IMG/VR virus record: IMGVR_UViG_3300014204_013734
Coordinates: 256,001-320,000 of that record
Source: a virus
Taxonomy: Duplodnaviria > Caudoviricetes
Strand: one strand, 5' to 3'
DNA length: 64,000 nucleotides
Shown here: piece by piece, positions 3,757 through 60,780 of the stretch
How positions within the stretch are numbered: the first letter of the stretch is position 1
Layout of the letters: every line of letters begins with the position of its first letter
Notes under the pieces: generated by a model
Database searches by the model: none
Seen by the model: only the letters and a program-made list of their open reading frames with translations
What the model was told of the DNA's origin: nothing
Translations under genes and position numbers: made by a program

Positions 3757-3844
3757 ATTAACCGCCTATGGTTTGCCCTTTGGCGGGGATGGGAACCAGC
3801 CCCCCCGTTTTAATGGGGCGCGGCAACATACAAGGATAGATAAA

Positions 3845-5457: not shown

Positions 5458-5464
5458 CGTTCTG

Positions 5465-6238: not shown

Positions 6239-6249
6239 CGGAGATTTGA

Positions 6250-9885: not shown

Positions 9886-9894
9886 GAGCCCAGG

Positions 9895-41713: not shown

Positions 41714-42607
41714 ATGGACGGAGGTGACACTTTGGACGAATGGAAAGAGTATCCTGAGGGAGACGGACATCCTACGTGTCCTCGCTGTCACGGGCGCGGG
41801 GTCGTTTCCTTGCCGAAAGAACTACGGCCCCGGATTGCTGTCGGTGAACTGACACAAATATGTACCTGTGTTCTGGCCAGGGACATCATGGCAAATTTGG
41901 AACGTGGATGGCGAGGTTTGTCCAAAGCAGCGGTGATAAAAACATCCCCCCTTGTGGGGATGGAAAAAAAGAACCTTCGCATTACGGCATCCGCAAAGGC
42001 CATTAAAGAACATTTGAAACACGTTGCGTCCCGAATGGGGACCCGTTGGGGATTTCTTGTCATCAGCGATGCTACCATGATGGATGCTTGGTTATCCAAA
42101 GGTATTGCAAGGATTTACGATGCTGACGTAGAAGAAATGCGGTCATCTGATTCCAGGGGCGGGTTTGAAAAAAGTCCTTACGATGCTCTTTCCGAACTGG
42201 TAGAACATCCGCCTTTACTGATTGTGGTCCTCGGAGTCAAAGCAGCCCGCAATTCTGCCATGGCGGAAGTTCTTCTTGAAGCTTTGACGCTTAGGGATTT
42301 TGCAGGTCGGCCTACTTGGTTGGTAGATCAGCCAGTACATCCTTTTGCTGAGGGGCATTTGTCTTGGAGTTCTTCCGTGGAATCGTGGTTGGAACCTTGG
42401 GAAAAAGTAGTCCTGAGTCGTCCTGCCCTAACCCCAAGCACAAGTACTGTCATTCGACCTGGTAAACCCCAGACGTTTGTTATGGGTCGTGAACCGATTG
42501 TTCAACTTTCTGAACCTCCCGCAGTAACTTGGGAACAAGCCGAATTGACAAAGATGAAGGAATCCGACAAGAAAAAGTGGAGAAAGAGGAAAGGGAAACA
42601 GGAATGA
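41714..42607 (+). CDS. DnaC/helicase-loader-like protein (Zn finger, degenerate ATPase)
   Basis: CPRC..CTC zinc finger, LLIVVLG and R...RPTWLV segments. Coupled to the helicase gene. Confidence 0.5.
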   Translation: MDGGDTLDEWKEYPEGDGHPTCPRCHGRGVVSLPKELRPRIAVGELTQICTCVLARDIMANLERGWRGLSKAAVIKTSPLVGMEKKNLRITASAKAIKEHLKHVASRMGTRWGFLVISDATMMDAWLSKGIARIYDADVEEMRSSDSRGGFEKSPYDALSELVEHPPLLIVVLGVKAARNSAMAEVLLEALTLRDFAGRPTWLVDQPVHPFAEGHLSWSSSVESWLEPWEKVVLSRPALTPSTSTVIRPGKPQTFVMGREPIVQLSEPPAVTWEQAELTKMKESDKKKWRKRKGKQE

Positions 42608-45498: not shown

Positions 45499-45730
45499 AG
45501 TATCGTTGGAAAATGGCGGCGTCATTGTCAAGCTGCATATGGAAGAAGCCTTAAAGATTGATCAGCTCAAGGGTTTGATGGTTCGGTATGGTTGGGACGA
45601 TGGAATCAAGAAAGCGGTAGAAGTGCTTTTCGTAGACATTGAAAAACAGGTTGGCAAAGAAATCCAGGAAGCACTTCACCGAAGCGTCCTTGACGGGACG
45701 ATCTCGTTTGACAGGAAAGACATTCCATGA
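45491..45730 (+). CDS. Hypothetical protein
   Basis: Coupled small ORF. Confidence 0.5.
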   Translation: MSEVSLENGGVIVKLHMEEALKIDQLKGLMVRYGWDDGIKKAVEVLFVDIEKQVGKEIQEALHRSVLDGTISFDRKDIP

Positions 45731-46461
45731 ATACCATTCCTGACGAATTGAAGGATTGGTTCAAGACATTGATTTCTCCCCCGGATGCCGAAGCCTTCAT
45801 CATTTCCAATTTGGAATCTGTTGACTTAGCTTCATGGCCCGATGAAAGCCATGTCGGGCTAATCGTCAGAGGGACCCCGACCGAAGCGCAATCCAAGGAA
45901 TTGCTTAGGGTGTTGAAACCGGGCGGGCACCTGATCTTGATTGCCCCTGACACGGAACCGACCGGGCATACAGGAACTTGCCGGATTGAAGATGCAGGTT
46001 TTGAAATCAGGGATTCCGTCCTGCTGGTGGATAGCCCGGAAGGGTTCTATTATGTCCCGAAGGCATCACGGGCCGAACGGGAAGCCGGGTGTTCAAACAT
46101 AGCCCCGAAACAACGGGATGAGGCTAGGAAAGAAGGAAACCCTGGCGGGGTTCATTCGGTCAGGAACTTTCACCCCACCATAAAACCTTCTGCGCTTATG
46201 GAAAAGCTGTTGGGGGACGGGAAGAATGGTGACAGTCCCATTCTTGACCCTTTCATGGGCAGCGGGTCCACGGGTATCGCCTGTGTCAAGACTGGGCATG
46301 ATTTTGTAGGGATTGACATGGAACCGGATTACGTGGGTATTGCGACGGCCCGTATCCGATATTGGGATGGGGAAACCGGTTTGGTTGAACGGTCCGTCAC
46401 GACGGAACAGGAACCCGAACTTGAAAAAACGGATTCCTTAAATGACATTTTCGGATGGTGA
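45727..46461 (+). CDS. DNA N6/N4 methyltransferase, SAM-binding module (no DPPY)
   Basis: LRVLKPGG, EDAGFEIRD, FYYVPKAS, HPTIKP and ILDPFMGSGSTG are present. Catalytic motif IV is absent. Confidence 0.8.
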   Translation: MNTIPDELKDWFKTLISPPDAEAFIISNLESVDLASWPDESHVGLIVRGTPTEAQSKELLRVLKPGGHLILIAPDTEPTGHTGTCRIEDAGFEIRDSVLLVDSPEGFYYVPKASRAEREAGCSNIAPKQRDEARKEGNPGGVHSVRNFHPTIKPSALMEKLLGDGKNGDSPILDPFMGSGSTGIACVKTGHDFVGIDMEPDYVGIATARIRYWDGETGLVERSVTTEQEPELEKTDSLNDIFGW

Positions 46462-46477
46462 AAAAGGAGGTAACGAA

Positions 46478-47311
46478 ATGACCAACAACACCCTTGCTAA
46501 AGATGTAGCACAGCACAAACGGGCCGTGTCCGTTTTTCTGTCCTTCTTGATCGGGAATCTTGAGGATCGGGCGAAAACGCACGATGACAGTAAGCTGTCT
46601 CCAGAAGAATTCAATGTTTACGATCAGGTTGGCCCGAGTTTGAAAGCAGCAGCGTTCGGGTCGGAAGAATACAAGGCAGGTTTAGCCCAATTAGGGTCGG
46701 CTTTGGCCCATCATTACGCTACCAACCGACACCATCCGGAATACTTCAAGCCCAAGAACGGCAAACCCGGCGGTATTCCTGCCATGGATTTGGTAGATGT
46801 TACTGAAATGTTGTGCGATTGGGTCGCGTCAGCCTTGGCTAAAGGCAATGATCCGTTGAAGGGTATGACTGAGGTTCTGTTCCCAAAATATCGGGTAGAT
46901 GGGGATCTTCAGGCTATCTTGTCAAACACTGTCAAATCTTTGCTTGAAGATGTTGCGAATCAGCCGGATAAGAAAAGATCCACAACCGAGGGTCCTTGGG
47001 AAGCTGAAATGCAAGACCCCACAACGTGTGAACATCCCACATGGGAAATTTCTCCAAAGGATGATCCGACGCAGACCATATGTGTCCTGTCTTCCTGCCA
47101 GGAAGGCAATCTTGAAGCAACGGCAAAATTGATAGCCCGTGCCCCGGTTTTGGAAGCGGAAAACAAAGCTCTTCGGGAGTCTCTTCGGGAAATGGTAGAA
47201 GACTTGGAGGAATGCGGGTCCCTGCCGGGTAGTGATGGACATCCTTACTGGAGGGCCCGTGTTTTGTTATACGGTGAAGAAGGACGAGTTCCAGGTAATA
47301 AAGGGGAGTGA
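46478..47311 (+). CDS. HD-domain (DUF5662-like) protein
   Basis: HDDSKL, HHYATNRHHPEYF and EMLCDW motifs. Confidence 0.75.
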   Translation: MTNNTLAKDVAQHKRAVSVFLSFLIGNLEDRAKTHDDSKLSPEEFNVYDQVGPSLKAAAFGSEEYKAGLAQLGSALAHHYATNRHHPEYFKPKNGKPGGIPAMDLVDVTEMLCDWVASALAKGNDPLKGMTEVLFPKYRVDGDLQAILSNTVKSLLEDVANQPDKKRSTTEGPWEAEMQDPTTCEHPTWEISPKDDPTQTICVLSSCQEGNLEATAKLIARAPVLEAENKALRESLREMVEDLEECGSLPGSDGHPYWRARVLLYGEEGRVPGNKGE

Positions 47312-47314
47312 ACC

Positions 47315-47974
47315 ATGGAAAGCAAATCGACGGTTCTAAGTTTAGACGATTTTCTGACCCAGCAAACAACATCCCCCGATACGAAAGCAATGGAACTTGC
47401 TTACAAGACTTCCTGCGAAGATGCCGGCCGTGCCAAACGTGATATGGCCATCAATGAAGGATGGAATACGGTGTGGGGATGTCTGTTTGAAGCATACCTG
47501 AAATTTTCTCGGTTCGTTGTTGAAAGGAGCACTCCTGTTGGAGTAACCCTCTTTGTCCACCGTCAAATGGCGGTCAGGGAAATCCCGGATATCATTGCTT
47601 ACCTAGCCAGAGCCTATTCCGACCCTTCCTGCCGGCAACAGGAAAAACCTGACAACTACGGTTTGCACAAGGCCTTGAATATGGCGACAGCCATAATCAC
47701 CAAAACATCAGCCGCGTCCCAAATGGTTGGGGATCAGTGCATTCTGCCTGGGTGGGACGAACCGGCACAAGCAGTCGTCCAAGCGTTTTCTTCTTTGCGG
47801 CAGCAGATTACGATTACAGGGGCAGGAACGGACGAAGGGTCTACCAGCGTAACCCTCAATGAAAAGTATGTCCTTGATGCCATTCCCATGATGATTGCAC
47901 GTCTTTCTCGCGCCTATGCCTTGCTTTCTAAAGCCGAAGATGTGGTGGAAACGGCTAAAACGGTAACGCCATGA
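47315..47974 (+). CDS. Hypothetical protein
   Basis: RBS GGGAG. Internal two-fold similarity (EIPDIIAYLARAY / AIPMMIARLSRAY). Confidence 0.6.
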   Translation: MESKSTVLSLDDFLTQQTTSPDTKAMELAYKTSCEDAGRAKRDMAINEGWNTVWGCLFEAYLKFSRFVVERSTPVGVTLFVHRQMAVREIPDIIAYLARAYSDPSCRQQEKPDNYGLHKALNMATAIITKTSAASQMVGDQCILPGWDEPAQAVVQAFSSLRQQITITGAGTDEGSTSVTLNEKYVLDAIPMMIARLSRAYALLSKAEDVVETAKTVTP

Positions 47975-49731
47975 ATGGTGAATTTCCGTCTGTTTTTGAG
48001 CATCCTTTGAAGGTAATTCACCTGTTCGCCGGAGCTGGGGGCGGTATCCTGGGGGACTTGATCCTTGGTCACGAATGTGTTGCTGCCGTAGAGATTGAAC
48101 CCTTCTGCCAACGGGTGTTGAAGGAGCGCATTGTGGACGGGGCATTGCCGGATTTCCCCATCCACGATGATGTCAGGACGTTCCAAGGCAAACCGTGGAA
48201 GGGTAAGATTGACATGATTTCAGGGGGCTTCCCCTGCACCAATATTTCCTTGGCAGGAAAAGGGGAAGGGCTTTCGGGACCACAAAGCGGACTCTGGTTT
48301 GAATTTGCACGGATCATTTCCGAAGCGGAACCCAAGTTCGTGTGGATTGAAAACGTTCCAGCCCTTCGGGGCCGCGGATTAACCGTCGTGCTCGGAAACC
48401 TCCATGACCTGGGCTACAACGCCCGGTGGGGGGTTATGTCCGCTGCTGATGCCGGAGCTCCGCATCTTCGCAAACGTTTTTGGATACTGGCGTGGCGTCA
48501 AGGGGTCGGGAAAGTGTCCGGCGAACCTGCCGCAAAATGGGATTCAAAGGCGAAGTCATGGAGGATCATCCGATCTTTTGATGGGACATCAATCTCTTAT
48601 GGAGAAGCCTTTCCGGTTTGGGGGGTGATGCGTAACGGTGGATTATTCCATCCGCCAATTCCGGAATTCGGTGCTTTCAACGGTGTTTCCTGGCCAACCC
48701 CGAGGTCCGGTAAGGTTTCGGACGAAAACGCAGAATCCTGGATGAAACGGCATGAGGAAGGCAAGGTGTCAACCCCGCCATTGGCTTTGGCCGTGAAGAT
48801 GGCAGACGGGAAAGAACCCTTTCCAACCCCGACGAAGTCCATGGCGACCGTACAGGACATGGAACAGGCAAGGTTTGCGGGAAACGATCCGAAGCGTCCG
48901 AAATACGCGGATGCCTTGAATTCATTTCCGACCCCTAGAGCAACCGATGCCGACCGGGGCGGTAGGGGAGACTTGATCCAGGCAGTTCGGGGGAACGCCA
49001 ATTCCCATCATAGTTCGTGGCCAACCCCTCGGGCGTCCCAAGGGGGTCCTGATTTCGCCCGGGAAGACCGGCCGGAATCAGGTGGTGACGATCTGGCAAC
49101 TGCAGTAGCCCGCGAGGAATTCGGGACGCCTACCGCCAACATGAAGGAAGCATCTGATTCTGAAACATGGCCAACGCCAACGTCTCGTGATTGGCGTTCG
49201 GGAAAAGCAAGTCAGGCTACTTTAAACAAGAATAGCCGTCCCTTGAGTGAAATTGTTGAAAAGCGACTCCAGGAAGAAGCATCCGATCCTTCAAGTTGGC
49301 CAACCCCGCGGGCATGTTCCGCCATTGCGGCGACTTTGACGGAAAACAACCTAGACCCCAGATTATTTCCGAACCTGGAAACTGTGGTGACAAGGTCCGA
49401 CCCGAAAAACATGCTCGGCGGGCAACTTAACCCTGATTGGGTAGAATGGCTGATGGGTTGGCCTATTGGATGGACCAACCTGGACCCCCTGAACATGGAA
49501 TGGTTTGAAATGTGGAAAAAGGGGACAGGTCCTTGGACGCAAGGGGGTTGGTGGGACGAAGACCCGTCCAAGACCGGTTTCGCTCCCAGGGTCGCTAGGG
49601 ATGTTTCGGATCGTGTCCGACGGTTGGCGGCACTTGGCAACGGACAGGTTCCGGCGACCGTTGCCTTGGCTTGGATCACGCTTGCAACAATGCAGGAATC
49701 CACGGATTTAGACACTTTTTTCGGGTGGTAA
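47971..49731 (+). CDS. dcm: DNA cytosine-C5 methyltransferase with WPTP repeats
   Basis: LFAGAGG, GGFPC, ENV, R.R.W and ALGNGQV motifs, plus seven (W/F/G)xTP repeats. Confidence 0.9.
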   Translation: MNGEFPSVFEHPLKVIHLFAGAGGGILGDLILGHECVAAVEIEPFCQRVLKERIVDGALPDFPIHDDVRTFQGKPWKGKIDMISGGFPCTNISLAGKGEGLSGPQSGLWFEFARIISEAEPKFVWIENVPALRGRGLTVVLGNLHDLGYNARWGVMSAADAGAPHLRKRFWILAWRQGVGKVSGEPAAKWDSKAKSWRIIRSFDGTSISYGEAFPVWGVMRNGGLFHPPIPEFGAFNGVSWPTPRSGKVSDENAESWMKRHEEGKVSTPPLALAVKMADGKEPFPTPTKSMATVQDMEQARFAGNDPKRPKYADALNSFPTPRATDADRGGRGDLIQAVRGNANSHHSSWPTPRASQGGPDFAREDRPESGGDDLATAVAREEFGTPTANMKEASDSETWPTPTSRDWRSGKASQATLNKNSRPLSEIVEKRLQEEASDPSSWPTPRACSAIAATLTENNLDPRLFPNLETVVTRSDPKNMLGGQLNPDWVEWLMGWPIGWTNLDPLNMEWFEMWKKGTGPWTQGGWWDEDPSKTGFAPRVARDVSDRVRRLAALGNGQVPATVALAWITLATMQESTDLDTFFGW

Positions 49732-49734
49732 AGA

Positions 49735-50322
49735 ATGAAACAAGAAGAAATTTATAAGGCTATGCGGGCTAGGTTTGCAACGGTTCTGGACGGATTCGTC
49801 GGTCAACGTTTGGAACCCCGTACCGTGCGTCAGATCAAACAAACCCTACAGGCTACTCTTTCCAGGATGATTGACGAAGGTCTTATTAACTTCCCCGTAC
49901 CAAATTGGCAACTGCGTGTGTACGAAAATGAAGGAAGCCTGGAAATCGTTTTTGGGGATCCAGATGAAAACCTACCGAAGAAAGGAACGGAGATGTTTTT
50001 GGACGAATACCAAGACAAGGCAAAAGTCACGGCTTTTTATCCTCGCAGATGGGCTAACCTGAATTATCCGACACTTGGACTGTGCGGGGAAGCTGGGGAA
50101 TTCGCCAACAAGGTGAAGAAGATTGAACGGGATCATGGGGGTGTTCTGACCGACGCTGTTCGGCAAGCCCTCAAAGAAGAACTGGGAGACGTGCTTTGGT
50201 ACGTGGCCATGTGCGCTGATGAACTTGGGCTTACTTTGTCGGATGTAGCGGAAACCAACGTGGCCAAGTTAGCATCCCGATTGGCACGGGATCAGATCAA
50301 GGGTGAAGGGGACCAGAGATGA
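49735..50322 (+). CDS. MazG-like nucleotide pyrophosphatase
   Basis: LGLCGEAGE, EELGDVLWY and N..KL..R motifs. Confidence 0.85.
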   Translation: MKQEEIYKAMRARFATVLDGFVGQRLEPRTVRQIKQTLQATLSRMIDEGLINFPVPNWQLRVYENEGSLEIVFGDPDENLPKKGTEMFLDEYQDKAKVTAFYPRRWANLNYPTLGLCGEAGEFANKVKKIERDHGGVLTDAVRQALKEELGDVLWYVAMCADELGLTLSDVAETNVAKLASRLARDQIKGEGDQR

Positions 50323-50984
50323 AAAAACCTTATCAACACATTAAGGTGCAGAAATTTTTGGATGACCAAAGTCAACGCCTGGAAACGGGGGCGGTTTGTG
50401 TAAATTTGGACTGGCCAGGTTTATTTATCCGGGGGGATAGTTGTCATGGATTCCTGATGCGTATTTTGGAACATCTTCAATGTGTTCTTGAAGGAGGAAA
50501 TGCAATTATGACCTGTCAACCTTTGTTGGAACTGGTTCATTTGCTGGACTCTCCAGTGCACTACGGGCCTGAATATGGACAATACGTTTCGCGTTTTTTG
50601 GAAGAACTGGACAATCGTTTTTCAATGTCCGATGACCCTAAGAAACCCTTGTATGATCCAAAAAGGGTGTCGGAAAGGGCTTTGTCGGAATTGGAAGCTA
50701 AGTTCAGGGAAGCCCTTTCAGGTATGCTTGATAAGACCTGGAATAACGCTTCCGAAGAAGAACTGAACGACTTTCTTAAGAAAGTCGTCATTGAATTCAT
50801 TGATAAGGATTTCCTTCCTTGGTGGTCTCTTCCAACAATCAAATGGGAAGTTGTAGCTTCTGAAGGATGGTCTTCTTTGAAATTCAATTTCCGCATACCG
50901 GGGAAATCTGACAAATTCTTCATTCAACCTTTCAAAAAGGAAAAAGACGGAAATGACCACGGAAGAGTTGGGACCCCATGTTAG
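50319..50984 (+). CDS. Hypothetical protein
   Basis: Coupled ORF with a DWPGLFIRGD motif. Confidence 0.55.
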   Translation: MKKPYQHIKVQKFLDDQSQRLETGAVCVNLDWPGLFIRGDSCHGFLMRILEHLQCVLEGGNAIMTCQPLLELVHLLDSPVHYGPEYGQYVSRFLEELDNRFSMSDDPKKPLYDPKRVSERALSELEAKFREALSGMLDKTWNNASEEELNDFLKKVVIEFIDKDFLPWWSLPTIKWEVVASEGWSSLKFNFRIPGKSDKFFIQPFKKEKDGNDHGRVGTPC

Positions 50985-51256
50985 AAACCGGGGCATGTTT
51001 GATTTCCAGGACCGGCATGCGGTTAACCCAGGTTCCGAAGATAGATTGCACTACTTCCATCAAAGCTGGGAAAACGATTGGACGCGTCCACGTATGGCTT
51101 CTGGAAAATGCCGTTCTGCAGGCGGAAGCTTTGAATGACGAATGGGTGTCATCCATGTTTTCAAAGTGGGAAGCAAAACGGTTGACTGATGCCGATGTGG
51201 AAACCTTAAACGATTGGTTGTTTGATCCTGAATTTGGACAAGGAAACAGGGCATGA
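50978..51256 (+). CDS. Hypothetical protein
   Basis: Coupled ORF. Its stop overlaps the ATG at 51253. Confidence 0.5.
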   Translation: MLETGACLISRTGMRLTQVPKIDCTTSIKAGKTIGRVHVWLLENAVLQAEALNDEWVSSMFSKWEAKRLTDADVETLNDWLFDPEFGQGNRA

Positions 51257-52503
51257 CACAGAAACTCGTCCTCAGACTCGGCAATTGTGTCGAAGTTATG
51301 CGGACTTTAGAGGAGGGAAGTGTAGGGGGGGTCGTAACTGACCCCCCCTACTAGTTGAATGGGATATCGTTCATGGGTAGAAAATGGGACACCGTGGATG
51401 AAAACAATACGCCAGTTCAGGAAGATTCGTCCAATGATGTTGAGCCAGAAGGGGTGTTCCTGGAACATGTCCATGCGCAGCAGGCATGGCACCTAGCCTG
51501 GCTCAAGGAAGCGTTCCGCGTCCTGAAGCCGGGCGGGGTCATTAAAGCATTCAGTGCGACCCGAACATTCCACAGGCTTGTTGCCGCCATGCAGGAAGCT
51601 GGTTTTGTTGATGTCAGGCTTCAAGCTTGGGTCTACGGATGTCTGTCGGAAGACACTGAAATTTTGGTCCGTCAGGGTAGTAGGGAAGAATGGATCCGGT
51701 ATCCGGGAGATGAAGCTATTCAGGGTTTGGAAACGCTTTGTTTTGATATGACAACAGGTCTGCGGTGGGAACGTATCCTTGAAGGGTTTTCCTATGACTA
51801 CGACGATATTGCTTTTCATCTAAAGGGTCCCCGTACTGACCAATTGGTATCAAAGAACCATAGGTGTTTGTTGATGGGGGCCGAAGGCAAGATGCAATTT
51901 GAATTGGCGGAAAATCTTCCTTCGTCCGTGATCATTCCTATCATTCCGGATTGGGTGCAACCGGTGCAGGAAGGGGATAACATCCTGTGGGGTGTAGCGG
52001 ACGTGAAACCCGTGTATTATACGGGTACCGTCTGGTGCGTGAAAGTTCCTACGGGGGCGTTCGTAGCCCGTAGGAATGGGAAAATCTTCATCACCGGGAA
52101 CAGTGGGTTTCCAAAATCATTAAGCATTTCTAAGGCTTTGGACAAGAAACAAGACAATGATCTTAAACGGGAAGTACGAAGAGCCGCAGTAGCAGCAGTT
52201 CAAGAAGCCGGGTTGTTTCTGCCGTCCAATTCTTTGTGGGATTGGACGGTTGGCGAACATGGTCCTGGGGATACATGGTGGAAAAAGTTTCAAGAAACAC
52301 TCCCAGGGCTTACGGACGAAAACAGAGAAAAGATTGAAGGTGCTATTGTGGCTACGGTTCAGAAAACAGCGGGTTGGTTTACTAGGAAGGATATTTACGA
52401 AGTACGGGCCCCTGCTTCTGCGAATTCTAAAAAGTGGTCCAAATACGGAACGGCCGTGAAACCGGCTTGGGAATCCATCGTCGTTGGGAGGAAACCGGAA
52501 TGA
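51253..52503 (+). CDS. DNA N6/N4 methyltransferase catalytic module, with an in-frame TAG after DPPY and a mini-intein
   Basis: MTQKL..GNCVEVM..VVTDPPY*LNGISFMGRKWD..RVLKPGG..YG[intein]SGFPKS..GTAVKPAWESIVVGRKP. No FxGxG motif. Confidence 0.75.
51322..51351 (+). other. Perfect 12-bp hairpin ending at the Tyr codon before the TAG
   Basis: GTAGGGGGGGTC-gtaact-GACCCCCCCTAC. Confidence 0.85.
51640..52101 (+). mobile_element. Mini-intein (154 aa, no endonuclease)
   Basis: YG|CLSEDTEIL...VSKNHR...VWCVKVPTGAFVARRNGKIFITGN|S. Confidence 0.9.
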
Positions 52504-52889
52504 GCAAGTCCATGACCGAAACTGAAATTTGCCGCAAGATTGCTCTTTATGACCCTGAAATCAATCTTCCAGTACGGTGTCTTGAGTTGAATCTCAGCGT
52601 CTTGGCAAATGCCTTTTGGCGGATAGAATGCTACAACAACGCTGTCGTGGCAATAAGTGCTTGCCATGATACAATGGTTTTGCTCCGTGAACTGCTTTCC
52701 GATGATTTCCTGGAAAGGTCTCCCGAAGGGGTTGATCTGCTTTGGGGGGCTTCTTTGGTGGAATGTACGACCATTCCCGAAGGCCAAATCTGGATGATCG
52801 GGGATCAGGAATCCCCTGCGGCTGTTACCTTCATCCAATTCAGTAATCCGAGGGAAGAAACTCTCGGGCTGTCGTATTCATTGAACTGA
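52500..52889 (+). CDS. Hypothetical protein
   Basis: ATGA-coupled ORF. Confidence 0.55.
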   Translation: MSKSMTETEICRKIALYDPEINLPVRCLELNLSVLANAFWRIECYNNAVVAISACHDTMVLLRELLSDDFLERSPEGVDLLWGASLVECTTIPEGQIWMIGDQESPAAVTFIQFSNPREETLGLSYSLN

Positions 52890-52911
52890 ACGGGGAAGAA
52901 ACCTTCTGACC

Positions 52912-53421
52912 ATGATCCTCGCCATCACAGGACACCGACCCCAAAAATTGGGCGGATACAAGGACAACCCAACCCGGAAAATCGTGCAGGCGGCGATGTC
53001 CCAGGCGTTCCTTGACCTGAAACCCGAAAAGATCATTACAGGCATGGCCCTTGGGGTTGACCAGTGGGCGGCGGCTTTGGCCGTCAGACACGGCATTCCG
53101 TTCATTGCGGCCATCCCCTGTCTTGAACAGGAAACGGTTTGGAATTCCGATGTCCAAGACCGTTATTGGCAAATCCTCAAGCTTGCTTCCGAAGTAGTAG
53201 TTGTGACCCAAACGCCATACAATCCGACTGTCATGGCTAAACGAAATCTTTGGATGCTTGATCGGGCTGATGCCGTATTGGCTATTTGGGACGGCAGCAG
53301 AGGCGGGACAGGTCATTGTGTTGCCGAAGCATTGAAGCGAAACATCCCTGTGCATCGTATTCTTCCCGAAACAGGGGAACGAATCATAATGCTTGTCGGA
53401 AAACCCGTTCCGAGGAATTAG
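52912..53421 (+). CDS. SLOG-family (YspA/DUF1273-like) protein
   Basis: ITGHRP, TGMALGVDQ, RN..M and GGT..CV motifs. Confidence 0.85.
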   Translation: MILAITGHRPQKLGGYKDNPTRKIVQAAMSQAFLDLKPEKIITGMALGVDQWAAALAVRHGIPFIAAIPCLEQETVWNSDVQDRYWQILKLASEVVVVTQTPYNPTVMAKRNLWMLDRADAVLAIWDGSRGGTGHCVAEALKRNIPVHRILPETGERIIMLVGKPVPRN

Positions 53422-53424
53422 GTG

Positions 53425-54609
53425 ATGGGAAAATACACGGTCCGACGAAGATGTGGCCATGAAGAAGAATTGAACCTGTATGGGCATATAGAAGAACGGG
53501 ACCGTCGTCGTGACTACGAAACAGGGCTGTTGTGCGCCCAGTGTTACAAACTGAAACTGGAAGAAGACCGTCGTAAAGCCAGCGAAGCAGCGGCGTTGGA
53601 GGGCAAGGAAAAGGGTTTGCCGGACCTTGTCGGCACCGAAAAACAGATTGCCTGGGCATTACGTATCCGTCGTTCTGTTTGTGAAGACCTTGCTAGTGCG
53701 GAATCCTGGGTTTTGGGTGAACGTGAAAAAAGGAGTCTGTCGGAAGAAGATACCTGCCTTCGGTTAAAGGAACTGTCCAACATTCGCGAACAGAATTCCG
53801 CTTCCTGGTGGATAAATGAATTCAAGGAACTTGATCTATTGTCCTGGCACGCAATGCGAAATTATCTGAAAGACCGATTTGAAAAGACACAACATGACCA
53901 AGAACTGAAAATGCTTCATGAATCTGAAGAGTCTATTCGTGAAGATCAGGATTTGCTTCGGCCTTCCAGCCCAGTCACCAACGCGGTAGTGGAAATCACG
54001 TCTTCAAATGACACTATTTGCCTACGACTGCCCGAATTCAACGATACGTTCATAACCGTAACTAAGAAGCTTCATTTCGGATGGGATAAAATGAAGTTTT
54101 TTTGGAAACGAACGCTTGATGAACGTTCCCTTCCTATGCAAGACCGCGTAGCTGAAACGGGGGCCGTTTTGTTGGCTTCTGGTTTCATGATCCGTGTTGA
54201 CCGCAGTGTGGTTCCTTTGATTGTTTCCGGAAATTATGAACGTGAAACGACGAAATGGGTGACGAAAGGAGGTCGGAATTTCCGTATTACTTGGAGGGAA
54301 GACGACGGAAATTTCAACACCTTATTGAATCAAATCAGGGGCTACAAACAAAACCGTAAGTTTGCGTGTTGCGTTCACATTCCGTCAAATCAGTGGGAAC
54401 TTGTGCTGGATTTTGCCGAACAACACGGATTCAAAATTGGGGAGGAAGCAAAGAAATTTGCCGAAAGAATTGCGCATGATTTCAAATCTTCCCTGGTTGT
54501 GGACATCAAATTGAATGAAAAAATTGTTGTCGGTCCGGTCGGGGGCCCGCCTAAAGCGTTGATCGTTCCAGAAACGGTAGACGTGGACGATGAATTTAAG
54601 GACAACTAG
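53425..54609 (+). CDS. Hypothetical protein with an N-terminal Zn-ribbon
   Basis: CGH..CAQC, LPDLVGTEKQIAWA..IR and SASWWI motifs. Confidence 0.65.
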   Translation: MGKYTVRRRCGHEEELNLYGHIEERDRRRDYETGLLCAQCYKLKLEEDRRKASEAAALEGKEKGLPDLVGTEKQIAWALRIRRSVCEDLASAESWVLGEREKRSLSEEDTCLRLKELSNIREQNSASWWINEFKELDLLSWHAMRNYLKDRFEKTQHDQELKMLHESEESIREDQDLLRPSSPVTNAVVEITSSNDTICLRLPEFNDTFITVTKKLHFGWDKMKFFWKRTLDERSLPMQDRVAETGAVLLASGFMIRVDRSVVPLIVSGNYERETTKWVTKGGRNFRITWREDDGNFNTLLNQIRGYKQNRKFACCVHIPSNQWELVLDFAEQHGFKIGEEAKKFAERIAHDFKSSLVVDIKLNEKIVVGPVGGPPKALIVPETVDVDDEFKDN

Positions 54610-56005
54610 TCAACTTCTTCCCCACCAAAAGGAAGCAGTAGCGAAGCTTTCCGGGACACGCATCGGTGCCCTTTTCATGGAAATGGGCACTGGGAAAACA
54701 AGGACCACCATAGAACTGGTTTCCTTGCGGCAAGAACGGATTGATCGTTGCGTTTGGTTCTGCCCTGTTTCCTTGAAAACCACAATTGCCGCTGAAATAC
54801 GGAAACACACCAACGCGGTAGATTCCGACATTCACGTTTTTGACCATCGAACATCTAAGCGGGATATGCCCGATGCGCAATGGTACGTGATCGGCATTGA
54901 AAGCATGAGCAAGTCGATGCGTATTATTTTCGCCGCAAGTGCCCTCATCACTGAAAAAACTTTTGTTGTGGTTGATGAATCCAGTTACATCAAAGGATAC
55001 AGTTCTTTGAGAACGCGGAGGTTAACTGCTCTTGCTGAACAAGCTCAGTACAGATTGATTCTTACGGGAACTCCAATCAGCCAGGGTGTCGTCGACCTAT
55101 TTGCACAGATGCGGTTTCTTTCACCTAAAATCCTTGGCTATCGCAGTTTCTTTAGTTTCGCTGCCAACCATCTTGAATATTCAAAAAAGTATCCAGGCAT
55201 GATCGTGCGCAGCCACAACCTTGACTACCTTGCTGCCAAGATCAAACCGTACGTTTATCAGGTGACGAAGAAGGAATGCCTCACGTTGCCGCCGAAATTG
55301 CACGAATCCTATTACTTCGATATGACCGGGCGGCAAACGGAAGCCTATGACCGAGCCAAATGTGAATTACTGATGGATATCCCTGATGAAGAAGTTACGT
55401 CATGGGTGATTTTCAAGTTGTTTTCGGCTTTGCAGTCCATCACATGTGGGTTTTGGAATCGTCGTACCCCTGAGGGCATTGTTGAAGAACGTTATCCCCA
55501 TGGAAGAATCAAACTTCTTATGGACGTAGTCAATAGGATTCCGAAAGACGAAAAGGTCATCGTTTGGGCCAAGTATCATTATGATATTGAAGGGATTGTT
55601 TTGGATTTGGAAAACCGATGGGGACCGGGATCTTGTGCGGTTTACACGGGCAAGAAGTCCGAACGGGAACGGGTAGAGGAAATTTCTAAATTCAGGAATG
55701 ATGCCCGCTTTTTCGTTGCTACGCCATCGGCCGGAGGGCATGGGTTGACCTTGAACGAAGCTCACCATGTCGTCTTTTACAACAATGGATTCAAGTTTTC
55801 GGAACGTCTCCAGGCCGAAGACCGCTGTCATCGTATCGGGCAGGGATGTCCGGTTACGTATGTGGATATTCTGTGTTCAGGATCAATAGACGAACGCATC
55901 AAAGAAGCCTTGGACGCAAAAGAAAACGTGGTTGACAGATTCAAAAGGGAATTGGATATGGTCAAGCGTTCGGGTATACGTAAAAGGTTGCTGGAAATTC
56001 TCTGA
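54590..56005 (+). CDS. SNF2-family helicase
   Basis: MEMGTGKT, VDES, LTGTP, GHGLTL and QAEDRCHRIGQ motifs. Confidence 0.9.
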   Translation: MNLRTTSQLLPHQKEAVAKLSGTRIGALFMEMGTGKTRTTIELVSLRQERIDRCVWFCPVSLKTTIAAEIRKHTNAVDSDIHVFDHRTSKRDMPDAQWYVIGIESMSKSMRIIFAASALITEKTFVVVDESSYIKGYSSLRTRRLTALAEQAQYRLILTGTPISQGVVDLFAQMRFLSPKILGYRSFFSFAANHLEYSKKYPGMIVRSHNLDYLAAKIKPYVYQVTKKECLTLPPKLHESYYFDMTGRQTEAYDRAKCELLMDIPDEEVTSWVIFKLFSALQSITCGFWNRRTPEGIVEERYPHGRIKLLMDVVNRIPKDEKVIVWAKYHYDIEGIVLDLENRWGPGSCAVYTGKKSERERVEEISKFRNDARFFVATPSAGGHGLTLNEAHHVVFYNNGFKFSERLQAEDRCHRIGQGCPVTYVDILCSGSIDERIKEALDAKENVVDRFKRELDMVKRSGIRKRLLEIL

Positions 56006-56018
56006 ATCGGAAAAGGAT

Positions 56019-56681
56019 GTGGCATTGGGCAAAATTTTCCTTTACGGGGACAGTTGGGAACGGTATCCGATTACGGAAGGGGCAGAATGGACGGACCCCG
56101 GCACCGGATCCGTGGTTGCCGTGTCTGACATCCGCAATCCCCTGCCGAAGTTTATGGTTGGGGCGGAAATGGTCTATTCCGACCCTCCCTGGGACCTGAA
56201 CAACATCAATGCCTTCCTTACGAAAGCGGGAAGGGCTGATTACGTTGACAGATTTCCTTCCTTCTTGGACGTTTTCTTCAACCGACTCAGGGAAATTCAC
56301 CCGAAGGTGTGTTACCTTGAAATGGGGGTAAAAAACGCAGCTTTGGTCAGGGAACATTTGAAACAGGATTTTGCTTCCGTTCAGGAATGGCCCATTCTGT
56401 ATTACCGCAAGCATCCGTGCTTCCTGTTCAGGGGAGGACCGACACCGGTAGAAATGGACTTTTCCGGCCTGGACGACTCGGAAACCCCGTTCACGGCGAT
56501 CATTTCCGAATGTCCGGTATCGGTAGCCGACTTGTGCACCGGAAGGGGTCTGACAGCCGTAGCAGCATTCAAGGCGAACGTTAGGTTCTTCGGCACTGAA
56601 ATCAACCGGCGCCGTTTGGCCGTGGCCTTGGACAGGGTGAATAGGATAGGGGGGGCCTATGCGCCGCGTCCAATTCCTTAA
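56019..56681 (+). CDS. Small beta-class methyltransferase
   Basis: YSDPPW followed by DLCTGRG and GTEIN. GTG start. Confidence 0.7.
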   Translation: MALGKIFLYGDSWERYPITEGAEWTDPGTGSVVAVSDIRNPLPKFMVGAEMVYSDPPWDLNNINAFLTKAGRADYVDRFPSFLDVFFNRLREIHPKVCYLEMGVKNAALVREHLKQDFASVQEWPILYYRKHPCFLFRGGPTPVEMDFSGLDDSETPFTAIISECPVSVADLCTGRGLTAVAAFKANVRFFGTEINRRRLAVALDRVNRIGGAYAPRPIP

Positions 56682-57435
56682 AGACACCGCAAAAGCCATT
56701 CTTCCCGAACTCCCTTCTGGAACCTTGGTCCTGCACAGAAAGGGGTTTGATTACGGGATTCCTGAAATCCCTGGTGCGGAATACATGGATTTCCTTGAAT
56801 ACAAAACCAAATATCCGGCTCTGAATCCCCCGGCTATCGTCATGGTCGGACTCAACCGCATTATTACACCCGGCAACCGCTGCGATATGGTCAACGAATA
56901 CCTACAGACCATGACGCCGAACCTGCCTAAGATATGCCTTGACACAGCCCCGTTCCTTGGGGAACCTTGGCGTCTGTGGTTCCATTATTCCGTTGCCGGA
57001 TCCGGGCGTTTCGGTATCTCTTACAGCTATGCTTTAGAAACGGAATGGGAACATTGGTTCCATAGGGACGTGCCGGACTGCCGGTTGTCGGCTTCCAACA
57101 TCAGGATGCTTCTGACCGATACGGTTTCGGATTTGGATCTTCTGAAAACGACGTTCCACTTCATAGAACCATCTCCCGACGAAGAGGATTGGTACAATGA
57201 AGTGAAGAAGCAGGCGTTTGAACGGCACAGCACTCCGAAGATGCTGGTCAACACGCTCCTGGCGGCCGTTAACCGTCGCTTCGGACTGAAAGTGTCATAC
57301 GACAGCTACCTGGAAAACAAGGAAGTCGAGCTCCTGGATTTGGGTGTGTATCGTTTTGTGGCGGAAGAGGCTGTCCGGAGGATGGACATATACAACGAGG
57401 TCGTCCGTCATGGGCACGAAAACCTACCTGGATAA
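56659..57435 (+). CDS. Hypothetical protein in the Ibr module
   Basis: Overlapping ORF between the MTase and IbrA. Confidence 0.6.
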   Translation: MRRVQFLKDTAKAILPELPSGTLVLHRKGFDYGIPEIPGAEYMDFLEYKTKYPALNPPAIVMVGLNRIITPGNRCDMVNEYLQTMTPNLPKICLDTAPFLGEPWRLWFHYSVAGSGRFGISYSYALETEWEHWFHRDVPDCRLSASNIRMLLTDTVSDLDLLKTTFHFIEPSPDEEDWYNEVKKQAFERHSTPKMLVNTLLAAVNRRFGLKVSYDSYLENKEVELLDLGVYRFVAEEAVRRMDIYNEVVRHGHENLPG

Positions 57436-58489
57436 AAATGTGCTTGATGCTGCTCGCGAACGAATCGCGATGCTGTTTGATAACTTTGAAGCAATCAATG
57501 TTTCAATTTCCAGCGGTAAGGATTCCTGTGTCCTTTACACGTTGTGCGTGCAGGAAGCCGTTCGCCGGGGGCGTAAGATCACGGCGTTTTTCCTGGATCA
57601 GGAAGCGGAATATGAAGCCACTGTAGACGTGATGCAACGCATGATGCAGCATCCGAATATCATTCCCCAGTGGTATCAAGTTCCCATCTACATGACCAAT
57701 GCTACCAGCTACAGCGATTATTTCCTTTACGCTTGGGGGCCCGGTGAGAAATGGATGCGCGAAAAGGATCCGATGGCCATCCATTCCATTGACGAGGAAT
57801 ACGAAAAACGGTTCTACGGATTCCTTGACTGGTACGAAAAAAGAAATACTAATGCCGCCTATCTGGTTGGGTTGCGTGCCGATGAATCCGTCACGCGTTA
57901 CCGGGCGGTGACCAAATATCCCGGCTGGAACGGGATACGTTGGGGCACGATGAACGGGGAAGTCAAACGCTTTTATCCGATCTATGATTGGACGGTTTAC
58001 GATGTCTGGCATTTCATCTACGAATTTGATGTCCCTTACAACAAGATTTACGATTTGATGTTCATGGATGGCCAAAGCATTTACAAAGGCATGCGGGTGT
58101 CAAACCTCGTGCATGAAAAAAGCTTTCACTGTTTGGTGGATCTTCCTCGGTACGAACCGGAAACTTACGATAAGCTCTGCCGCCGTATCGGGGGGATAGC
58201 TACCGCAGCCCGTTATGCGGCTGAAAAAACCGTGTTCAACAACGGCACCTTGCCTAGCCATTACAAGTCGTGGTTGGAGTTTCGGGATTTCCTGTTGGCA
58301 AACATCCCTGAAGAAGAACACAGGGAACGGTTCGCTGCCCGTTTTGCAAAGCAGGATGCGAACGAAAAGATGTATCAGGGCCAAGTCGGTCAACTGCTCA
58401 TCAATGATTACGAAAACAGCCGTCCGTTTGACACCAAAGTTGCCGAGCGAGTTCGGAGATTGAAGGAAAAATGGAATCAACTCTTGTGA
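57410..58489 (+). CDS. ibrA: IbrA-like PAPS-reductase-family protein
   Basis: NVLDAARERI, SSGKDS, FLDQEAEY, VGLRADES, YPIYDW and MRVS motifs. Confidence 0.8.
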   Translation: MGTKTYLDKNVLDAARERIAMLFDNFEAINVSISSGKDSCVLYTLCVQEAVRRGRKITAFFLDQEAEYEATVDVMQRMMQHPNIIPQWYQVPIYMTNATSYSDYFLYAWGPGEKWMREKDPMAIHSIDEEYEKRFYGFLDWYEKRNTNAAYLVGLRADESVTRYRAVTKYPGWNGIRWGTMNGEVKRFYPIYDWTVYDVWHFIYEFDVPYNKIYDLMFMDGQSIYKGMRVSNLVHEKSFHCLVDLPRYEPETYDKLCRRIGGIATAARYAAEKTVFNNGTLPSHYKSWLEFRDFLLANIPEEEHRERFAARFAKQDANEKMYQGQVGQLLINDYENSRPFDTKVAERVRRLKEKWNQLL

Positions 58490-58986
58490 GCGAAAAGTTC
58501 GCGGACACGGATTCAATCGTCATTTGGCAGACAAGACTTGTGAAGATGGAAGACCTTGTCGCCAACGACTACAATCCGAACCGGATGCCAACCACAGAGA
58601 TGAAACTCCTGGAAATGTGCATCCGTAAGTTTGGGTTTCTCTTTCCGTTGATTGTATGCCCGGATCAGGGGAAGTACAGAATTGTGGACGGCTATCACAG
58701 GTACGAAGTGCTGAAACGCATGGCCGTCAAAGTGGTGTCCGCAGTGGTGTTGGACATCCCCTACCACGAAGCAGTGCAGCTTACCGTGCTGATGAACCGC
58801 ATCAAGGGCATGCACCAGGTGGAAGGCATGGCGGATTTGATCGTCAAGCTTGAAGATTTGGGCGTTGCCGATCAGGAAATCTGTGTGAATCTCGGCATGG
58901 AGGTTGAAGAATACCTCCGATTGAAGCAGCAACTTGGTATCGCCCATGCCTTTAGGGATCACCAGTATTCAAAATCGTGGGAATGA
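58471..58986 (+). CDS. ibrB: IbrB-like ParB/Srx-domain protein
   Basis: ANDYNPN, IVDGYHRY and TV.MNRIKG.H motifs. Confidence 0.8.
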   Translation: MESTLVSEKFADTDSIVIWQTRLVKMEDLVANDYNPNRMPTTEMKLLEMCIRKFGFLFPLIVCPDQGKYRIVDGYHRYEVLKRMAVKVVSAVVLDIPYHEAVQLTVLMNRIKGMHQVEGMADLIVKLEDLGVADQEICVNLGMEVEEYLRLKQQLGIAHAFRDHQYSKSWE

Positions 58987-59504
58987 ATATGCTTGTTGCT
59001 ACCATTGCCAGGAAACCGATTAGTATGACCGTCGTCGACAACGTGTTGGTACACGGGGTCGGTGGGTTCAACATAGACGATTGCCGGATAACCCCGACCG
59101 GGGAACGTCTAGGCGGCGGGGATGAATCGGCAGAATCCATTGACGGAAAGTGGTCTGGTTGGAGCCGTCCTTGGATGCACGATCCTGCCAAGGTGTTCAA
59201 GGTAGCATCGGAAGTACGAGACAAGGTTGAAAAAGCCACGACCTTGGGACGTTGGCCCGCTAATGTCATCTTGATTCATTTACCAGAGTGCCGTGAACAG
59301 GGAAATGGGACCGTGTGGGAATGTGCTGAAGGGTGTCCGGTCGCCTACTTGAATCAGACTGTCGGGATCACCAAAAGTGGGAGCATTGATTCATGGAGGG
59401 AAGGGGTGCCTGGTCCTGTGTATGGCCATCCTTCGGCCCGTCAAGTCACATTCCAAGGAGATGCCGGGTTTGTGTCCCGGTTTTTCAAGCAGGTCAAACG
59501 ATGA
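58983..59504 (+). CDS. Methyltransferase middle module A
   Basis: ARKP..NVLVHGVGGFNIDDCRI..GRWPANVI..SRFF matches the internal segment of phage N6/N4 MTases. Confidence 0.75.
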   Translation: MNMLVATIARKPISMTVVDNVLVHGVGGFNIDDCRITPTGERLGGGDESAESIDGKWSGWSRPWMHDPAKVFKVASEVRDKVEKATTLGRWPANVILIHLPECREQGNGTVWECAEGCPVAYLNQTVGITKSGSIDSWREGVPGPVYGHPSARQVTFQGDAGFVSRFFKQVKR

Positions 59505-59989
59505 TCGTCGCTACGCTGGCCAGAAAGCCTTTGCGGGGAACCATCCTTGACAACATTATGTTATATGGGGTCGGGGCTTTGAACATCAACGATTGCAGGA
59601 TAGGTACAGACCCGATTGTCGTCCAGGGGGGCGGTGGCGCCGCTTGGGATACTGATGGGAACAAAGTCGGACGCCCGATGGGGGAGATCAATGAAGCACG
59701 TATCGGAAGGTTTCCCGCCAATCTTGTCCTTGTTCACCAAGAAGGGTGCACACGTGCCGGAATTGCGAAGGTGAAAGGAAGTGGCCATTGGATTTCAGCC
59801 GGAGATTCAAAGGGTGTAGTGTGGGGGAAAGGGTTCCATCAGGAACAATCCGATTTCGGGAATGTTCTTGCTGATTCCGAAGGGTTGGAAACTGTTGATG
59901 TATGGGTTTGCACCGTTGGATGTCCCGTTCCTGAAATGGATCAACAAAGTGGGGTTTCTCGTTTTTTCAAGCAGGTGAAGGGGGATTGA
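59501..59989 (+). CDS. Methyltransferase middle module B (tandem paralog)
   Basis: ARKP..YGVGALNINDCRI..GRFPANLV..SRFF. Confidence 0.75.
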   Translation: MIVATLARKPLRGTILDNIMLYGVGALNINDCRIGTDPIVVQGGGGAAWDTDGNKVGRPMGEINEARIGRFPANLVLVHQEGCTRAGIAKVKGSGHWISAGDSKGVVWGKGFHQEQSDFGNVLADSEGLETVDVWVCTVGCPVPEMDQQSGVSRFFKQVKGD

Positions 59990-60780
59990 TGATGGAACGG
60001 AAACTTGGCGGATTCAGACCGGAACCTTTAGACCCGAAACATTGGACGTTTTCCGACAAGTTGAAGCCCCGCTTGTGCGCATTGAGGGAAGATGACGTGG
60101 ACCTTCGTCCCTTCTCTTCCCCCCGACACGACCAACAATGGACGAATTCCTGTGTAGCCAATGCAGTCATTAAAGCATTGGAAATCAAACGGATCATGAA
60201 GTTCGGGCATGCAGCGCATGTCGACCTGTCCCGCCTCGCTGTTTACTTCCTTGCTCGGGAACTGATGTTCCCCCAGGAAACGTCACAGGATGCTGGAACT
60301 TACGTATCCCTTGCGTGTGATGTCCTGCGGCGGTGGGGCGTTTGCACCGAAGAAGCTTGGCCATTTGACCTTAATAAGGTGTTCTCACCTCCCCCTTGGG
60401 GAGCCATGCGACAGGCACATGTCAACCGGATTGCAGCGTTCTACAGGCTTGATTCAGGTGTTTCCAGGGCTCGTCTGGTGGAAGATGTCATCCGTTGCCT
60501 TCGGGCGGGTAACCCCGTCGTTTACGGGACTGCAATTGGCCAGAACTGGTTTGATTACAAACCGGACCAAGTGTTGACGACCCCCAAGGACATGAAAGAT
60601 ATGGTAGGTCGGCATGCTACTGTTCTGGTCGGGTTTGCAAATGGCAGGTTCATCGGAGAAAACAGTTGGGGACCGAATTGGGGTTCCAATGGGTTCTACT
60701 GGATGGATCCTGGGTATATAACCTGGAAGGAATCCTGCGATTTTTGGACAATCACGGCCCCTTGGCAGGAGGTCAAATGA
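59986..60780 (+). CDS. Papain-like C1 cysteine peptidase
   Basis: DQ..NSCVANA, HATVLVG and NSWG..WG.NG motifs. Confidence 0.85.
   Translation: MMMERKLGGFRPEPLDPKHWTFSDKLKPRLCALREDDVDLRPFSSPRHDQQWTNSCVANAVIKALEIKRIMKFGHAAHVDLSRLAVYFLARELMFPQETSQDAGTYVSLACDVLRRWGVCTEEAWPFDLNKVFSPPPWGAMRQAHVNRIAAFYRLDSGVSRARLVEDVIRCLRAGNPVVYGTAIGQNWFDYKPDQVLTTPKDMKDMVGRHATVLVGFANGRFIGENSWGPNWGSNGFYWMDPGYITWKESCDFWTITAPWQEVK

Follow-up and report, generated by a model that had tools for sequence, protein, structure and literature searches.

Four genes scattered along the genome of a phage together carry the motifs of a single DNA methyltransferase, which raises the question of whether they are remnants of a broken gene or parts of an enzyme that is assembled from separate products. 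The genes lie on a stretch of 64,000 nucleotides (nt), hereafter the window, comprising bases 256001-320000 of the 381-kb IMG/VR virus record IMGVR_UViG_3300014204_013734. A 444-kb ENA contig holds a stretch identical to the window, and the source is therefore a jumbo phage. The four genes are probably this phage's copy of a recurrent split beta-class N6-adenine/N4-cytosine methyltransferase with three kinds of subunit, referred to here as N (the DPPY piece, 51253-52503), M (present twice, as 2A, 58983-59504, and 2B, 59501-59989) and pN-Ct (45727-46461). The features of the four genes are as follows.

45727-46461, + strand: pN-Ct, 244 amino acids (aa); a degenerate N-core, FYYVPKAS..ERE, HPTIKP, DPFMGSG and the tail ..SLNDIFGW
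51253-51354, + strand: 5′ part of N, 33 codons to ..VVTDPPY and then TAG; matches positions 3-30 of the profile hidden Markov model (HMM) of N
51322-51351, + strand: perfect 12-bp G7/C7 hairpin with a 6-nt loop, within the codons for VGGVVTDPPY
51355-51639, + strand: N-extein downstream of the stop, with TTG 51355 or ATG 51373 as its start; GISFMGRKWD..WLKEAFRVLKPGG..AGF..AWVYG
51640-52098, + strand: predicted mini-intein, 153 aa; Cys1 (CLSEDTEIL), block B TDQLVSKNHR, C-terminal VWCVKVPTGAFVARRNGKIFITGN and Ser at +1
52099-52503, + strand: C-extein of N; SGFPKS, a helical insert and ..YGTAVKPAWESIVVGRKPE, with the stop at the conserved break of the family
58983-59504, + strand: M subunit 2A, 173 aa (171 aa from the ATG at 58989); ..VATIARKP, GG.NID.CRI, GRWPAN, H-x3-C...C-x3-C and ..VSRFFKQVKR
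59501-59989, + strand: M subunit 2B, 162 aa; MIVATLARKP.. and ..VSRFFKQVKGD, with ends as in 2A and a different centre

All four reading frames described in an earlier note on this DNA are present in the translations with the motifs quoted there, and the four proteins tile a full-length homologue in the manner that the note had suggested. With the single-chain mycobacteriophage methylase P0005 (478 aa; BLASTP) as reference, N aligns to residues 9-157 and 157-240, 2A to 236-380, the more divergent 2B to 236-362 and pN-Ct to 110-152 and ~375-464, both 2A and 2B ending in the family ...VSRFFKQVK motif (residues 377-380). The break points, said to abut precisely, do so at the junction between M and pN-Ct; at the N/M junction, on the other hand, about one beta strand ((I/V)xx(A/G)RKP) is duplicated, as the N end ..WESIVVGRKPE (P0005 228-240) overlaps the M start M..VAT(I/L)ARKP (from 236). 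The translational coupling claimed for every piece is borne out: in all four genes the ATG start overlaps the preceding stop as ATGA and lies downstream of a purine-rich stretch. The DPPY-less core that was seen ahead of the C-terminal motifs is real, but pN-Ct is a conserved family of its own and more than a tail behind a spare core.

Each of the parts recurs as a separate gene. Stand-alone M is represented by 65 matches of 95-303 aa that cover ~98% of 2A, 62 of which finish in ..RFFK.. and most of which begin 1-3 residues before ..(L/A)RKP. An exhaustive profile search of 1.84 billion representatives recovered 16,306 M-bearing proteins at E<=0.001; of the 150 highest-ranking, 69 consist of M alone and measure 192-269 aa, and the others are fused forms, e.g. 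N-M-M-Ct, M-M-pN-Ct and M-N-M-Ct. Stand-alone N pieces number in the thousands. Motif IV is found in 119 of the 120 listed, most of which end on a ..G(V/Y)K(K/R) strand, and DPPYG, YGSGFPKS and WGTALKPAWEP are conserved in at least 90% of an alignment of 117. For pN-Ct, over 90 relatives were found with coverage of at least 85%. Natural fusions join the parts as N-M-Ct (the canonical form), M-pN-Ct and M-N-M-Ct.

Open reading frames (ORFs) of 90 distinct loci were classified with HMMs for N, M, pN and Ct. The majority of these loci encode a fused enzyme, and stand-alone M occurs in eight loci besides the window. Across unrelated contigs (L017/18, L019-21, L033, L046, L048, L079 and L105), the trio of N, M and pN-Ct is clustered on a single strand, and the stop of one gene mostly overlaps the start of the next. 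The sets of genes are as follows.

L015: six tandem M and an N at the contig edge; syntenic with the window
L017: M, M, M, N, M-pN-Ct, pN-Ct
L019: pN-Ct, N, four M
L033: pN-Ct, six N, six M
L046: seven M, pN-Ct, two N
L048 and L079, each: N, M-pN-Ct, M
L074: M only
L105: M, N, N, M, M, pN-Ct; syntenic relative of L017

The mix in L105 differs from that in the syntenic L017, indicating that the sets turn over fast while the split is kept. Stand-alone M tends to occur together with the other separate parts. A pN gene is present in 7 of the 9 loci with stand-alone M, and stand-alone N likewise in 7 of 9 (8 when the intein-bearing N of the window is counted), against 3/81 and 2/81, respectively, in loci without stand-alone M (Fisher p = 5e-7 and 2e-7, from loci that are not phylogenetically independent). 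A fused N-M-Ct gene is found in none of the nine. An HMM scan of the 381-kb record likewise detected exactly one set of the N, M and pN-Ct pieces and no fused gene of the N-M-Ct subfamily. Among the cultured phages of INPHARED, tblastn of the pieces found fused forms only, and LR745208.1, the one uncultured huge-phage match, is fused too.

The separate genes also bear the mark of purifying selection. Between L017 and L105, the ratio of nonsynonymous to synonymous divergence (dN/dS) is 0.036 for stand-alone N, 0.035 for the flanking amidase, 0.099 for a flanking gene of 459 aa and 0.22-0.46 for pairs of M, while pN-Ct has a dN of 0.19 with dS saturated; these ratios are rough, with dS near saturation. 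The earlier note had proposed to test whether related phages keep the same split points under purifying selection; the same breaks recur, and stand-alone N is strongly constrained.

Several of the loci show further elaborations. The largest set, at 2663-11801 of the 125-kb IMG/VR contig of L033, places one pN-Ct, six N and six M in a 9-kb block, and several of its N pieces carry inserts of 65-90 aa right after DPPY; the multiplicity of N at this locus suggests that the catalytic half may be exchangeable too. In L046 (pN-Ct, 8406-10241) and L048 (M-pN-Ct, 10004-12562), Ct is interrupted by inserts of ~340 and ~400 aa at profile positions ~27-66 and ~51, respectively. Both inserts are candidates for additional inteins, which would lie at a second site of the enzyme. 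The reading of such genes as 'pN-Ct-Ct', with two Ct domains, was ruled out, as each contains a single Ct with an insert of 340-400 aa.

The pN-Ct protein contains motif X (HPTIKP) followed by motif I (DPFMGSG), behind a half-domain in which GTPT occupies the position of DPPY and is followed by LKPGG and GFEIRD. It matches PF01555 (N6_N4_Mtase) at 2.3e-18 and 67.4 bits (cut-off 26.7) over profile positions 154-219, and its HMM scores of 147 bits for pN and 174 bits for Ct identify it as a Ct behind a degenerate pN. Family members of 240-290 aa conserve LKPG, GFEIRD, YVPKA..ERE.G, HPTVKP and DPFMGSG, with G(T/E)PT replacing DPPY. Beta-class motif IV is present in N instead (DPPY, with the TAG next to it), and N alone scores 18.8 bits against PF01555, below the cut-off of 26.7. 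Motif IV and motif I thus stand in genes 5 kb apart, and the single polypeptide that is characteristic of the PF01555 class is absent.

The AlphaFold2 (AF2) model of the window pN-Ct has a mean predicted local distance difference test score (pLDDT) of 90.9 and a predicted template modelling score (pTM) of 0.75. The best Foldseek matches to this model are all beta-class DNA methyltransferases, with a template modelling (TM) score of ~0.26 and a root-mean-square deviation (rmsd) of ~21 Å. By rigid-body alignment, residues 1-100 and ~97-228 match methyltransferase halves separately (Z ~7-8.6 each), the pN half matching class I methyltransferases at Z ~7.5, and no solved chain was found that superposes on both halves at once. 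In the model, therefore, pN is not packed on Ct as a normal N-core would be and does not occupy the β4 position beside Ct. The C-terminal tail, ..SLNDIFGW (46435-46458), follows the family consensus L.D.FG, and the C5 methyltransferase encoded near pN-Ct at 47971-49731 ends similarly in ..DLDTFFGW (49705-49728). The ..FGW tails of both proteins resemble the C-terminal sliding-clamp-binding tails of T4/RB69 replication proteins, and by this analogy both methyltransferases may ride the phage clamp.

The complex was modelled for the L017 trio from alignments built in this analysis, N being treated as the partner under test. The interface score (ipSAE, the interaction prediction score from aligned errors) was 0.85, 0.85 and 0.86 in three runs, with a partner pLDDT of 71-73 and contact agreement of at least 66%, compared to 0.32 in the best control, in which pN-Ct was replaced, and 0.00 with unrelated partners. 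Among 80 solved complexes used for calibration, 58 attained this mark, as did 2 of 110 mismatched pairs. The lowest-error contact joins Ct 186-189 (KVVD, before DPFLGSG) to N 22-25 (DAIL, before DPPY) and, if the model is correct, is the canonical β1/β4 pairing that builds the active site, formed here across chains. In the same model, M 90-94 (WPANF of GRWPAN) contacts N 176-180 (LKPAW), and the FHY strand and β6′ of pN-Ct contact β6 of N. Together with the recurrence, the selection and the natural fusions, this model argues for the assembly in trans, with alternative middle genes, that the earlier note had proposed.

The N gene of the window departs from its relatives in two ways that were missed when 51253-52503 was described as a single run from DPPY to IVVGRKP with its motifs intact. 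The frame is not open, a TAG at 51352-51354 lying directly after DPPY (51340-51351), and YGSGFPKS is interrupted by the overlooked insertion of 153 aa at 51640-52098. The insertion is placed exactly between G and S of this invariant motif. The residues of a class 1 intein are present (C at 51640, N at 52096-52098 and S at 52099), there is no endonuclease domain, and the penultimate residue is Gly, not His. Searches of Pfam, NCBIfam and PDB sequences with the 153-aa insert gave no match; by ESM-Atlas features it clusters with Intein_splicing at 0.92, with 174 shared features. More decisively, the intein of Mycobacterium phage StressBall gp53 has the same insertion site, YG/SGFPKS (BLASTP through both junctions), near-identical splicing blocks (TDQL..NHR; VWC..VPTGAFVARR.G..FITGN/SGFPKS) and likewise a penultimate Gly. 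Because of this homology and the ESM-Atlas features, we regard the insert as a mini-intein allele of the known methylase intein, predicted to splice. The actinophage methylase family to which StressBall gp53 belongs carries a LAGLIDADG intein of 327 aa (PMC9957025); the site is common to both, whereas the allele described here has 153 aa and lacks the endonuclease. L015, L017 and 117 N pieces have no insertion at this point.

In StressBall itself (L103, 842-3425), the annotated gp53 breaks off shortly past ..FRYEAKAPGTERP and lacks both motif X and motif I, and a separate 83-aa 'DNA methylase', gp55, follows the tiny gp54. The enzyme of this cultured phage may be interrupted at its C-terminal end too.

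Downstream of the TAG, which is identical in the ENA assembly, the codons TTG AAT are followed in the same frame by the family sequence GISFMGRKWD, and these 9 nt, TAG included, look like an insert relative to the family consensus DPPYG(L/I)KFM. The last base of the hairpin immediately precedes the TAG. Its RNA folds at -39.2 kcal/mol (z = -3.55; 0/200 shuffles fold as well), and it is the only G7/C7 hairpin among the ~15 perfect hairpins of at least 11 bp in the 381 kb. For want of a T run downstream, a consensus scan did not call it a terminator. Frameshifting within the C7 run was ruled out by the family alignment, which continues in the zero frame, and a hop of the T4 gene 60 type by the lack of a matching landing codon. 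In this genome TAG is an ordinary stop that terminates 28 of 322 long ORFs, which, combined with the lack of a CUA tRNA, also rules out genome-wide recoding. The remainder of N is well preserved. It is 61% identical to the L015 N piece, retains nearly all family-invariant residues and ends in ..IVVGRKPE as the stand-alone N family does, and its sole G-to-A change (FSATRT) is common to its closest relative, L015.

Several points weigh against a functional split enzyme as the explanation of the window genes. The frame of N is interrupted after DPPY, where 119 of 120 relatives have a continuous frame with motif IV, and none of 120 stand-alone relatives starts after DPPY; a fourth split at this position is therefore without precedent. 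No suppressor (CUA) tRNA is present among the 35 tRNA genes called by ARAGORN, which form two clusters outside the window (C1, 49211-86477). Scanning IMG/VR with single proteins revealed no close relative of the source phage, and a megablast of 45000-60500 against 50,697 phage records gave no match either. At the family level, the co-occurrence loci share ancestry and the dN/dS values are approximate. Finally, the modelled trio is that of another phage, not the window genes, and split halves can pass such a test by their likeness to solved single-chain beta-class methyltransferases. What the pass demonstrates is consequently an ability of the parts to complete the canonical fold in spite of pN, not that they bind.

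It is a real, if somewhat doubtful, possibility that the system is dead or dying in this phage, the 9-nt TAG insert being a recent lesion that would have removed the catalytic strand, with the other three genes not yet decayed; the split enzyme may in that case still work elsewhere in the family. An in-frame TAG at 51352 that is the same in two assemblies, in a genome that uses TAG as a normal stop and lacks a suppressor tRNA, and at a position after which no other N piece begins, speaks for such a lesion, and several other methyltransferases encoded in the 381-kb record could cover the loss. However, a further 382 codons are intact, with nearly all of the invariants and a 153-codon intein that retains every splicing residue, as are both M genes and pN-Ct, and an in-frame insert of 9 nt with a TTG next to it and a perfect 12-bp hairpin before it looks less like a random hit. 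Programmed read-through or bypass of the TAG, in which the hairpin would help to produce a continuous N precursor at a controlled low level, is unlikely. Although the frame is unchanged across the stop, with family homology back three codons later, and the hairpin is exceptional, known stimulators of read-through lie 3′ of the stop, not 5′, and neither a landing codon like that of T4 gene 60, nor a suppressor tRNA, nor any comparative support was found. The rest of the weight falls on N being made in two pieces, translation presumably restarting at the adjacent TTG.

The M genes provide the part of the enzyme that varies. Both 2A and 2B extend from M-x-(I/V)-x-x-(L/A)-RKP to ..SRFFK, the span of stand-alone M, while sharing 30% identity. 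Invariant positions of the family are G25, R35, G89, R90, P92-N94, H99, C103, C114, C118 and RFFK, with W91 of the GRWPAN core kept in at least 90% of M proteins, and the H-x3-C...C-x3-C set looks like a putative zinc site. The AF2 model of M alone (pLDDT 51; <50 over residues 1-13 and 153-173) was too poor for searching. When paralogues of the same locus are compared, the first 35 and last 15 columns are 47-78% identical in 4 of 5 loci and the centres 16-39%; in L015 the first 35 columns are only 35% identical, with one paralogue taken from a late start. Because M is located at the target-recognition domain (TRD) position of beta-class enzymes and combines constant ends with a variable centre, we infer that the M subunits may act as specificity-changers. 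Fused relatives with 2-4 tandem M sub-modules suggest that the same logic may operate within one chain. In L010 (9326-12304 of a 407-kb IMG/VR contig), a single chain of 992 aa contains four tandem GRWPSN...CxEGCPV...GGASRFFTQ sub-modules and is a candidate multispecific amino-methyltransferase.

It is rather improbable that stand-alone M has nothing to do with a methyltransferase and comprises independent DNA-binding proteins that bind zinc, or decoys, for instance regulators or anti-restriction factors, with no more than descent from the insert in common with it. M has no match of its own in Pfam or NCBIfam, and the M profile has none among PDB sequences. In addition, M genes often outnumber the cores and can be kilobases from N and pN-Ct (the window, L019 and L074). 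Nevertheless, the invariant ..LRKP, GRWPAN and SRFFK are the very parts that single-chain enzymes bury on the core and that touch N in the model. M is found alongside N and pN-Ct rather than alongside complete enzymes, and M-pN-Ct and M-N-M-Ct fusions occur. That the pieces are the neutrally decaying remains of one broken methyltransferase gene or of several, for which their scatter over 14 kb in the order pN-Ct, N, 2A, 2B and the stop codon in N could speak, is very improbable and already contradicted at the family level by identical break points in hundreds of diverged proteins, conservation of the catalytic and SAM motifs (SAM, S-adenosylmethionine) in at least 90%, the low dN/dS of stand-alone N (0.036), the ATGA coupling of 4/4 starts and the single set of pieces in the record.

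Nearly all genes of the region are carried on the + strand. A second intein of the window is found in a DnaB-type helicase gene (42529-45498, 989 aa); it is full-length and includes a LAGLIDADG endonuclease (Pfam LAGLIDADG_3 2.7e-16; Intein_splicing 1.4e-08, 35.2 bits against a cut-off of 35.8). A small DPPW-type methyltransferase (55932-56681; SDPPW ... DLCTGRG) is flanked by an SNF2 helicase and a PAPS-reductase/ParB_N (IbrA/IbrB-like) pair and represents a DNA-modification cassette of its own. The ParB_N gene that immediately precedes 2A was excluded as part of the split system, as it pairs with the preceding PAPS-reductase gene and is absent from other split loci.

The split enzyme that we propose would be organised as follows. 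N would contribute strands β4-β7 with the catalytic DPPY and YGSGFPKS, ending right after the ..RKP strand, and pN-Ct, behind its degenerate, DPPY-less half-domain, would supply motif X as well as motif I (DPFxGSG), which binds SAM. N and the Ct half would complete one catalytic domain across chains, with β4/DPPY of N beside β1/motif I of Ct. M, comprising its own ..LRKP strand, GRWPAN and the His-Cys3 module at the target-recognition position of the beta class, and the ..SRFFKQ end, would occupy the site between the ..RKP strand and motif X, docking by its constant ends while its variable, zinc-braced centre would face the DNA. The M paralogues, of which this phage has two and other loci as many as six or seven, would compete for one core and so give several specificities against host restriction. 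In the window, the N precursor would have to splice out the 153-aa mini-intein, and N would consist either of a 33-aa DPPY peptide and the rest, produced by TTG restart or rare read-through, or of a protein that has recently lost its activity.

The fold, the single-chain family and its intein are already known (PMC9957025). Single-chain beta-class methylases such as PopTart gp63, ShiLan gp65 and StressBall gp53 (PMC9957025), a family of actinophage and other phage enzymes with a GG.NID / GRWPxN / SRFF insert, have the same motifs in the same order as N, M and Ct together. They are, however, one polypeptide. Here the chain is divided at two points, behind the ..RKP strand and behind ..SRFFKQ; a degenerate N-core has been added to the Ct half, and several alternative genes provide M. 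Among solved enzymes, the window Ct half superposes on CcrM (6PBD; Z 7.0, 31% identity), M.BceJIV (8URK; Z 6.2-6.3, 34-35% identity) and M.RsrI (1EG2; Z 6.3-6.4). These three, together with M1.HpyAVI (5HFJ) and TTHA0409 (2ZIE), have the motif order IV...X, I in common with the split system but are single chains without an M module.

More distant systems share individual aspects of the arrangement. M.AquI and M.EcoHK31I are two-subunit C5-cytosine methyltransferases encoded by separate genes, the products of which must associate. As here, one fold is built from separate genes; unlike here, the enzymes are of the C5 class and in two pieces, without alternative recognition subunits or a pseudo half-domain. 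Type I systems have a separate specificity subunit, HsdS, and the C5 methyltransferases of Bacillus phages SPR and phi3T have tandem recognition modules. The likeness of HsdM/HsdS and SPR/phi3T to the split enzyme is functional only and lies in the exchangeable recognition module; their recognition domains are unrelated, their cores are gamma-class or C5, and the Type I catalytic domain is unsplit. The HsdS architecture of two TRDs with conserved coiled-coil regions between them (Pfam Methylase_S) has no counterpart in 2A or 2B, neither of which matches any Pfam family at E<=0.1. METTL3-METTL14 and the ciliate MTA1c are MT-A70-type heteromers with one active and one degenerate methyltransferase subunit. 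They resemble the present case in having a motif-IV subunit, a degenerate partner and separate nucleic-acid-binding subunits, but each of their subunits is a complete fold, whereas the model here builds a single catalytic domain from two chains. Beta-class DNA methyltransferases are textbook single-chain enzymes with specificity fixed in the chain, and our literature search found no description of a beta-class enzyme in three parts that combines a split catalytic domain with a pseudo half-domain and alternative recognition subunits. Engineered split C5 enzymes for targeted methylation exist (PMC3404938).

It could well be, although we advance this tentatively, that many uncultured phages, jumbo phages included, possess a combinatorial methyltransferase in which one clamp-tethered, SAM-binding pN-Ct scaffold would pair with one or more catalytic N half-domains, the enzyme being completed in trans by any one of as many as six or seven exchangeable zinc-bearing M subunits. 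The system, of three or four small genes, is small enough for a direct test in E. coli. If the proposal is true, it would provide a natural scaffold for split or programmable methyltransferases and would explain the thousands of short 'DNA methylase' fragments and unannotated 200-aa metagenome proteins that pipelines would read as pseudogenes. It would represent a Type I-like division of labour that evolved independently in the Type II beta-class fold, with the catalytic domain formed from two chains. For the phages themselves, it would be a new route to diversify anti-restriction methylation, in which the few hundred extra codons of each M subunit would buy a new methylation specificity against host restriction.

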